From the NCBI RefSeq assembly GCF_000026545.1, contig NC_011601.1: 64,000 nucleotides of DNA; one strand, given 5' to 3'. The position numbers and the translations under genes were made by a program. Every line of letters starts with the position of its first letter. Position 1 is the first letter of the stretch. This document shows, in pieces, positions 63,184 through 63,510 of this stretch. Below the pieces are notes generated by a model that did not search any database, was not told where the DNA came from, and saw only the letters and a program-made list of their open reading frames with translations. Source of the stretch: Escherichia coli O127:H6 str. E2348/69 (GTDB taxonomy: Bacteria > Pseudomonadota > Gammaproteobacteria > Enterobacterales > Enterobacteriaceae).

Positions 63184-63510
63184 GTGGCTGACTGGCAAAT
63201 ACCAATCATCATTCTTGCCGGAGCTTCGCTGGTTGCTGGCTTTATCCTGCTGAAGAAGCATAAAGACCGTGATCAAAAAGTCGAAGTTCTCTATGGGTAT
63301 CCGGCGAACAGCACAACATGGCTGACTATTTACCACTACCGAAAATCAGGCCGTTGGGTATTCGAATGGGATGATCTGTTTGCTGAAAAGCGACCAAAGT
63401 CATGGGGAGACATCAGCGAATGCATGATGTTTGAAGAAAGAAAATCCGGCGCAACCCGAGAAGAGTTTAACGAAGCGTGGAGGCGATTAAGTGAGAGGGG
63501 GTATCAATGA
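63184..63510 (+). CDS. hypothetical single-TM phage protein (108 aa)
   Basis: ORF with N-terminal hydrophobic helix IPIIILAGASLVAGFILL between ren and ninB. Confidence 0.5.
   Translation: MADWQIPIIILAGASLVAGFILLKKHKDRDQKVEVLYGYPANSTTWLTIYHYRKSGRWVFEWDDLFAEKRPKSWGDISECMMFEERKSGATREEFNEAWRRLSERGYQ

Follow-up and report, generated by a model that had tools for sequence, protein, structure and literature searches.

The window analysed here is a 64,000-nt stretch of Escherichia coli O127:H6 str. E2348/69 (contig NC_011601.1) that includes lambdoid prophage sequence, and our subject is an open reading frame (ORF) for a 108-amino-acid (aa) protein lying between the prophage genes ren and ninB (63184..63510, + strand, GTG start). 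Its product is identical to RefSeq WP_000796283.1, annotated as 'hypothetical protein', and belongs to the family of Sf6 gp46 (PHROG 5903). We conclude that the ORF is almost certainly a functional PHROG 5903 gene of the pR operon. It encodes an already catalogued hypothetical protein (RefSeq, PHROGs) and is a non-essential, mosaic accessory cassette of the lambdoid early-right operon. As to what the protein does, we tentatively favor, with somewhat less than even confidence, a reading in which it is a cytoplasmic binding module, tethered to the inner membrane in an N-out/C-in orientation, that acts on a partner in lytic development. An initial annotation, made from the sequence alone, had described an extra ORF with an N-terminal transmembrane (TM) helix in the ren-ninB gap; both elements are borne out, the gap being 421 bp here versus 73 bp in lambda, where it contains the terminator tR2.

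The match to PHROG 5903 extends over the full length of the protein (E 9.1e-76; residues 1-108 on profile positions 1-108 of 108), the category being 'unknown function', and the same PHROG is matched by 48 of the 48 diverse family members that were scanned. The GTG start and the Shine-Dalgarno (SD) sequence are kept in all 62 full-length lambdoid copies. Among 45 close alleles, 32 variable sites fall at the third codon position, versus 21 and 9 at the other two, and the distinct codon changes comprise 34 synonymous and 30 non-synonymous ones. Homologs with 40-65% identity retain the protein core, and conservation at the protein level continues across unrelated phage lineages down to ∼30% identity. 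The gene occasionally decays away in prophages, as three of the 62 full-length lambdoid copies (loci L017-L096) have premature stops, at W74 (twice) or at Q5.

The protein is built from a hydrophobic N-terminal helix, a short basic flank and a conserved domain. The predicted TM helix comprises residues 5-23 (QIPIIILAGASLVAGFILL; 63196..63252, + strand), with a mean Kyte-Doolittle hydropathy of 2.28 over 19 residues, and coincides with an AlphaFold helix of residues 5-27; the family survey of flanking charges, described below, supports the assignment as well. Membrane localisation is a prediction from this hydrophobic helix, and within the TM segment only hydrophobicity is conserved in the family. 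The flank on its N-terminal side (MADW) is acidic and has no K or R. On the C-terminal side there is a basic juxtamembrane flank, KKHKDRDQK (residues 24-32; 63253..63279, + strand), which with its five K/R residues predicts that the C-terminal side is cytoplasmic. The 108-aa sequence contains no signal-peptide n-region, no lipobox and no AxA cleavage site, and has one Cys only.

Residues 33-108 (63280..63507, + strand) constitute the conserved globular domain, which was delimited from alignments and from AlphaFold model m4e52fd2c94a5 and consists of four beta-strands (residues 32-39, 46-52, 57-63 and 81-84) followed by a C-terminal helix (residues 92-104). The mean pLDDT (AlphaFold's predicted per-residue confidence) is 85.9, and the means of 10-residue blocks range from 82 to 98 over residues 31-108. 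The core of this ∼80-residue domain reads YGYP…TWLT…FEWDDLF…RP. Seventeen positions are invariant across 32 homologs (Y37, G38, Y39, P40, W46, L47, T48, Y50, H51, R53, F60, E61, D63, D64, L65, F66 and R70), and all 17 are found in the window protein. The most conserved stretch of the family is the FEWDDLF motif (residues 60-66; 63361..63381, + strand), in which D63, D64 and F66 are retained in at least 90% of the 48 diverse members, and which stays invariant as a contiguous motif despite an overall identity of ∼40%. We considered whether FEWDDLF might be a linear motif of the beta-clamp-binding type (QL[SD]LF) or resemble the tail of single-stranded DNA-binding protein (SSB), and rejected this by reasoning, since the motif ends a modelled beta-strand within a folded domain, rather than being part of a disordered tail, and lacks the key Q/L positions.

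From the 48-member alignment and a survey of N-termini, the family falls into three types that differ in what precedes the domain. In type (a), to which the window protein belongs, there is a TM helix preceded by a flank of 0-8 residues (usually 0-5), often containing D or E; K and R are absent from this flank in nearly all members (the exceptions are P0023 and P0059), and the flank on the C-terminal side has 1-6 K/R, usually 2-4. Type (b) is represented by about ten soluble proteins (P0068, P0070-P0072, P0074, P0076, P0077, P0079, P0081 and P0085; loci L097-L100), in which the TM helix is replaced by a C-x4/5-H … C-x-x-C pattern, presumably a zinc knuckle, and no hydrophobic segment is present; the model of one such member has a pLDDT of 91.4. 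Type (c) comprises members from virulent phages (Goslar, KookSpook, IME207 and others), whose short basic N-termini are amphipathic (hydrophobic moments 0.65-0.79) and compatible with peripheral membrane binding. The positive-inside pattern across type (a), together with the zinc-knuckle relatives, whose Cys-x4/5-His…CxxC site is expected to be cytoplasmic, is the reason for placing the conserved domain in the cytoplasm. The initial annotation had spoken of a charged cytoplasmic tail; the C-terminal side is indeed probably cytoplasmic, but it is a folded, conserved domain with a net charge of +2 and without low-complexity sequence.

The zinc-knuckle branch shares the pattern C-x-x-G-x-H-K … C-x-x-C with DUF1660 (PF07874), a family of small prophage Cys/His proteins. 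Two of its members match DUF1660 at 18.8 and 13 bits, below the gathering score of 21.4, and these weak matches hint at a distant link between two uncharacterised families. The window protein itself has no DUF1660 match and lacks the Cys/His ligands. Beyond this, searches of Pfam, NCBIfam, PADLOC and the PDB sequences with the protein and with the family profile gave no match, and Foldseek against BFVD returned uncharacterised homologs only. No enzyme-like fold match was found, and the predicted fold is one without a solved relative. A literature search for the 108-aa protein and for the Sf6/PHROG family found nothing on the 108-aa protein.

The family is narrow. When 1.84 billion representative proteins were searched exhaustively with the family profile, only 36 clusters emerged, whose members are single-domain proteins of 73-133 aa with a fusion partner in none. 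A match to a 3904-aa protein was discounted as a repeat artefact, the profile having matched a 25-residue stretch 14 times. The records give Escherichia, Salmonella, Shigella, Klebsiella, Citrobacter and Pantoea as hosts. The closest named relatives are the Sf6 gene 46 protein (AAQ12235.1) and AMBK_59 of Salmonella phage vB_SosS_Oslo, both 108 aa, whose DNA is 96% identical and which occupy the same place as the window gene, directly after the tR2 boundary sequence. What differs is the replication module upstream, which is lambda O/P/ren in the window, a DnaB-type helicase in Sf6 and a primase-helicase in Oslo.

This arrangement recurs in a survey of 80 related IMG/VR loci, most of which have the order tR2 box and then gene, preceded by any of the same three unrelated replication modules (lambda O/P/ren, DnaB-type helicase, primase-helicase) and followed either directly by ninB or by Sf6 gp47/gp48 cassettes. 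At all phage loci examined, the genes immediately around it run in the same direction as the gene itself, and the neighbourhood survey that had been proposed with the initial annotation yields co-oriented early or nin-like contexts. The frequent co-resident cassettes (Sf6 gp47, gp48 and a 52-aa ORF of HK630) are all of unknown function, and since they are uncharacterised, position gives no functional clue. Elsewhere the contexts are more varied. The T1-like Shuimuvirus IME207 has its homolog between primase and helicase, and in the T5-like phage KookSpook and the jumbo phage Goslar the gene is surrounded by small ORFs of unknown function. Other homologs lie in nin-like regions of further temperate phages or near the integrase in Pantoea prophages, and in uncultured phages of 45-78 kb a homolog directly follows a family-A DNA polymerase. 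In these polymerase-linked loci, which are contigs from Sequence Read Archive assemblies (L005-L008 and L011-L013), a TM-type homolog stands right after an 877-aa family-A polymerase, and in one lineage of this kind an HNH/NUMOD4 gene has been inserted between the two. These polymerase-linked TM-type homologs have no relative at ≥60% identity among INPHARED phages. One divergent homolog (P0063, 106 aa; L101:4001-4321) lies on a 1.18-Mb bacterial contig next to DUF903, MFS and LysR genes and has no phage gene in the surrounding 4 kb; it could be a remnant left as an orphan, or a copy that was domesticated.

The position of the window gene within the operon can be followed nucleotide by nucleotide. 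The upstream gene ren (62821..63111, + strand; PHROG 142 'Ren-like exclusion protein', 3.6e-42; RefSeq 'protein ren') is the last of the lambda-type O/P/ren replication module, and its TGA overlaps the ATG of a 27-codon hydrophobic NinA-like ORF (MTIYITELITGLLVIAGLFIWGRVNRG; 63108..63191, + strand), whose TGA in turn overlaps the GTG of the 108-aa ORF (GTGGCTGA). This small ORF matches PHROG 5907 (1.3e-18) and, by its sequence and the Sf6 and HK630 annotations, represents the conserved lambdoid boundary sequence, called 'bsq6' in Sf6. It can also be described as the coding face of the tR2 hairpin plus the boundary sequence, and a NinA product is putative. Within it, a terminator scan and RNA folding place the intrinsic terminator tR2 (63137..63170, + strand), with an 8-bp G+C-rich stem and an 8-nt loop (hairpin at 63137-63160) followed by a T-run, TTTTATTT; the homologous sequence in Sf6 is annotated as 'terminator, homology to phage lambda; tR2'. 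Next comes the SD sequence GGGGGAGAG (63169..63177, + strand), with a spacing of 8 nt from GGAG to the GTG. The ORF cannot extend further upstream, as an in-frame TAA (63178-63180) stands three bases before the GTG. Downstream, ninB (orf), the next gene of the operon (63533..63979, + strand; Pfam NinB, 4.1e-48), begins after 22 bp, in which the scan found no terminator.

In lambda, the SD sequence after tR2 serves ninB, whereas here and in Sf6 it serves the 108-aa ORF; the sequence is also kept in HK630. In a four-way alignment of the window, lambda, Sf6 and HK630, identity spans the SD sequence and ends just before the start codon, which sets the mosaic junction between these two elements, at 63169-63183 (lambda equivalent L102:1125-1147). 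Because identity ends at this point, the 108-aa gene can be described as a mobile cassette that has entered a mosaic junction of the classical lambdoid kind. The boundary sequence (∼84 bp) is present in 406 phage records; of 5426 complete E. coli genomes, 2052 contain it, at 3005 places in all. The 108-aa gene, by comparison, has 111 occurrences, spread over 107 complete E. coli genomes, or ∼4% of tR2 junctions.

A few database proteins (P0001, 133 aa, on 5 contigs) look like fusions of NinA with a gp46-family protein that give a two-helix protein; these probably arose through an indel in the T/G run. Another protein (P0005, 149 aa) has an N-terminal extension that differs from that of P0001. 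An antisense ORF at 63163-63336 (57 aa) had no support and was disregarded, and an Rfam scan of 58000-64000 gave no RNA family.

A simple consensus test for sigma-70-like promoters, beyond whose reach lie weak or non-canonical ones, gave no candidate on either strand of 62000-64000. The G+C content of the gene (47.4%) is not deviant from that of the prophage part (45.9%). In lambda, all genes beyond cro need N antitermination (PMC10695390), and phages deleted for the nin region still form plaques (PMC10695390; PMC8022706). An N gene is present in the prophage. As no promoter of its own was found, the gene is expected to be a delayed-early, N-dependent gene and not a lysogen-expressed moron; we infer that its transcription requires read-through of tR2 by N-modified RNA polymerase, and that it is silent in the repressed prophage. 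The lambda nin genes (ninB/orf, ninG/rap, rusA, ninH) lie in the same operon and share with it this delayed-early, N-dependent logic, the packing as mosaic cassettes and dispensability. The 108-aa protein has no homology to any named nin protein (NinB/Orf, NinG/Rap, RusA) and no Pfam match, and a predicted integral membrane protein is unusual in the nin region, where DNA-transaction proteins dominate.

Under the reading that we favor, the gene would be expressed on induction or infection, as a delayed-early gene, and not in the quiescent lysogen. The protein would span the inner membrane once, with an N-out/C-in (bitopic) orientation, so that the ∼80-residue domain is held at the cytoplasmic face. 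This domain would be a small binding module, whose invariant aromatic/acidic surface (YGYP, W46, FEWDDLF, R70-P71) captures a partner that is cytoplasmic or membrane-proximal, either an Enterobacterales host protein or a general component of infection. The N-terminal module, whether TM helix, amphipathic helix or zinc knuckle, would set the place of capture. The gene would be dispensable for plaque formation, like the remaining nin region, and its product would modulate host physiology or a host barrier in lytic development, rather than protecting the lysogen. A binding module is the simplest reading because the domain is small and never fused, carries an invariant contiguous motif and has no enzyme-like fold match.

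Several observations weigh against this reading. The binding mechanism is drawn from sequence and the modelled fold, and the invariant D63, D64 and R70 (plus H51 and E61 in the TM branch) might just as well belong to a catalytic or metal site. The positive-inside rule holds statistically, and some C-terminal flanks are neutral or acidic (P0042, net -4). The amphipathic N-termini could pack on the domain instead of on the membrane, and the zinc-knuckle subfamily shows that the core function does not require attachment to the membrane. The consensus scan leaves room for weak promoters, or for read-through of tR2, in lysogens. Finally, the premature stops in three of 62 lambdoid copies indicate that loss of the gene is tolerated.

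An accessory role in replication or recombination is the next reading to be weighed, and we regard it as unlikely. Here the protein would tether or organise phage DNA replication or its enzymes at the membrane, in the manner of phi29 p16.7, which in that Bacillus phage is a membrane anchor of replicating phage DNA; the same estimate covers a variant in which it modulates a helicase, primase, polymerase or host replisome component. The genomic contexts are what recommend this role. The gene follows lambda P/ren, a DnaB-type helicase or a primase-helicase in lambdoid prophages, comes directly after the family-A polymerase in the uncultured phages (even with an HNH gene between them), lies between primase and helicase in IME207, and has the recombination gene ninB next downstream. 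Moreover, p16.7 is the product of an early gene near replication genes and likewise has an N-terminal TM helix and a small cytoplasmic C-terminal domain. But such adjacency is weakly informative, since replication genes make up much of any early region, and the lambdoid position is set by a single recombination hotspot. KookSpook, Goslar, the contigs with zinc-type members and the Pantoea prophages have no replication neighbours, only small unknown ORFs or an integrase. With a median isoelectric point of 8.1 and a range of 4.6-9.7, the domain is not basic in all members; neither sequence nor fold searches matched it to a DNA-binding or replication protein, and no DNA-binding C-terminal domain homologous or structurally similar to that of p16.7 was found for the 108-aa protein. 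Nor did the protein prove to be a nin-region protein of known replication or recombination function, the outcome that would have spoken against the initial annotation; the family is one without known function.

That annotation had itself suggested superinfection exclusion or abortive infection (Abi), which we now consider distinctly improbable. The protein would in this case be a small inner-membrane protein that blocks incoming phage DNA or kills the infected cell, working either from the prophage or early in lytic infection. Small inner-membrane superinfection-exclusion proteins include HK97 gp15, P22 SieA and T4 Imm, of which T4 Imm acts early in lytic infection, while HK97 gp15 and P22 SieA are expressed in the lysogen from their own promoters. 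The window protein is like these three in its small size and its N-terminal TM segment, and in being phage-encoded and non-essential; a single TM helix with a membrane-proximal domain would suit such a factor, and the neighbouring ren is itself linked to exclusion by the name of PHROG 142. Early exclusion genes are known from virulent phages too, and the presence of homologs in T1-like and T5-like phages is therefore not decisive against the suggestion. The window gene differs from those of HK97 gp15 and P22 SieA in lying behind tR2 with no promoter-like site found, and it has no moron signature, its G+C content being ordinary. No sequence relationship to the three exclusion proteins was detected, and there is no match to a PADLOC defence model. 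The gene is embedded in the pR operon, and in several phage types it is located inside replication or nin modules, not in immunity or conversion regions. A further difference from the exclusion proteins is that the conserved domain of the family is predicted to be cytoplasmic, facing away from the route of DNA entry, and exists in soluble form: the core is found in zinc-knuckle proteins and, without a TM helix, in virulent T1-like and T5-like phages and in a nucleus-forming jumbo phage.

The opposite topology, N-in/C-out with a periplasmic domain that acts, for example, on the envelope, a receptor or lysis timing, appears very improbable. A single N-terminal hydrophobic helix could be a signal anchor, and AlphaFold is silent on orientation. 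The flanking charges described above, however, point the other way (an acidic N-flank devoid of K/R in nearly all TM members and a C-flank rich in K/R), the sequence has neither an AxA cleavage site nor a lipobox, some homologs have Cys3His zinc knuckles or no hydrophobic segment, and the lysis cassette of the prophage is located elsewhere. As for a decaying or functionless filler ORF that hitch-hikes at a recombination hotspot, we can practically discount it: the premature stops, the presence at only ∼4% of E. coli tR2 junctions and the dispensability of the nin region would suit it, but it is countered by conservation of an invariant motif across unrelated lineages to ∼30% identity, by the kept start codon and SD sequence with codon-position-biased substitutions, and by a fold predicted with high confidence.

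Over 51184-64000, all 12,817 nt are identical to the chromosome of enteropathogenic E. coli E2348/69. Two other features of the prophage were seen in passing. In the stretch 51184-52590 its integrase gene adjoins torS, which is annotated as frameshifted in RefSeq, and a BRO-family gene and a frameshifted small ORF are present between the repressor and N genes.

For now the finding is an ordinary one, namely one more hypothetical accessory cassette of the mosaic nin region, and its modest value is that of a well-delimited candidate for functional work. Its merits as a candidate are that the family is narrow (36 clusters among 1.84 billion proteins) and yet occurs in unrelated phage lineages, that it has an invariant aromatic/acidic motif, that its N-terminal targeting module is swapped between members, and that its predicted fold has no solved relative. 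A broader proposal, which we find doubtful, is that PHROG 5903 is a family of small phage effectors, spread horizontally among temperate and virulent Enterobacterales phages, in which the FEWDDLF surface binds and neutralises one conserved host factor, such as a membrane-associated immunity or stress component, and interchangeable N-terminal modules target it to different places. If this were true, the family would represent a counter-defence or host-takeover protein that had so far escaped notice and whose fold lacks a solved relative. Identification of a host target would add a small effector to the tools of phage host takeover and counter-defence, and would account for the occurrence of an integral membrane protein in an operon of DNA transactions.
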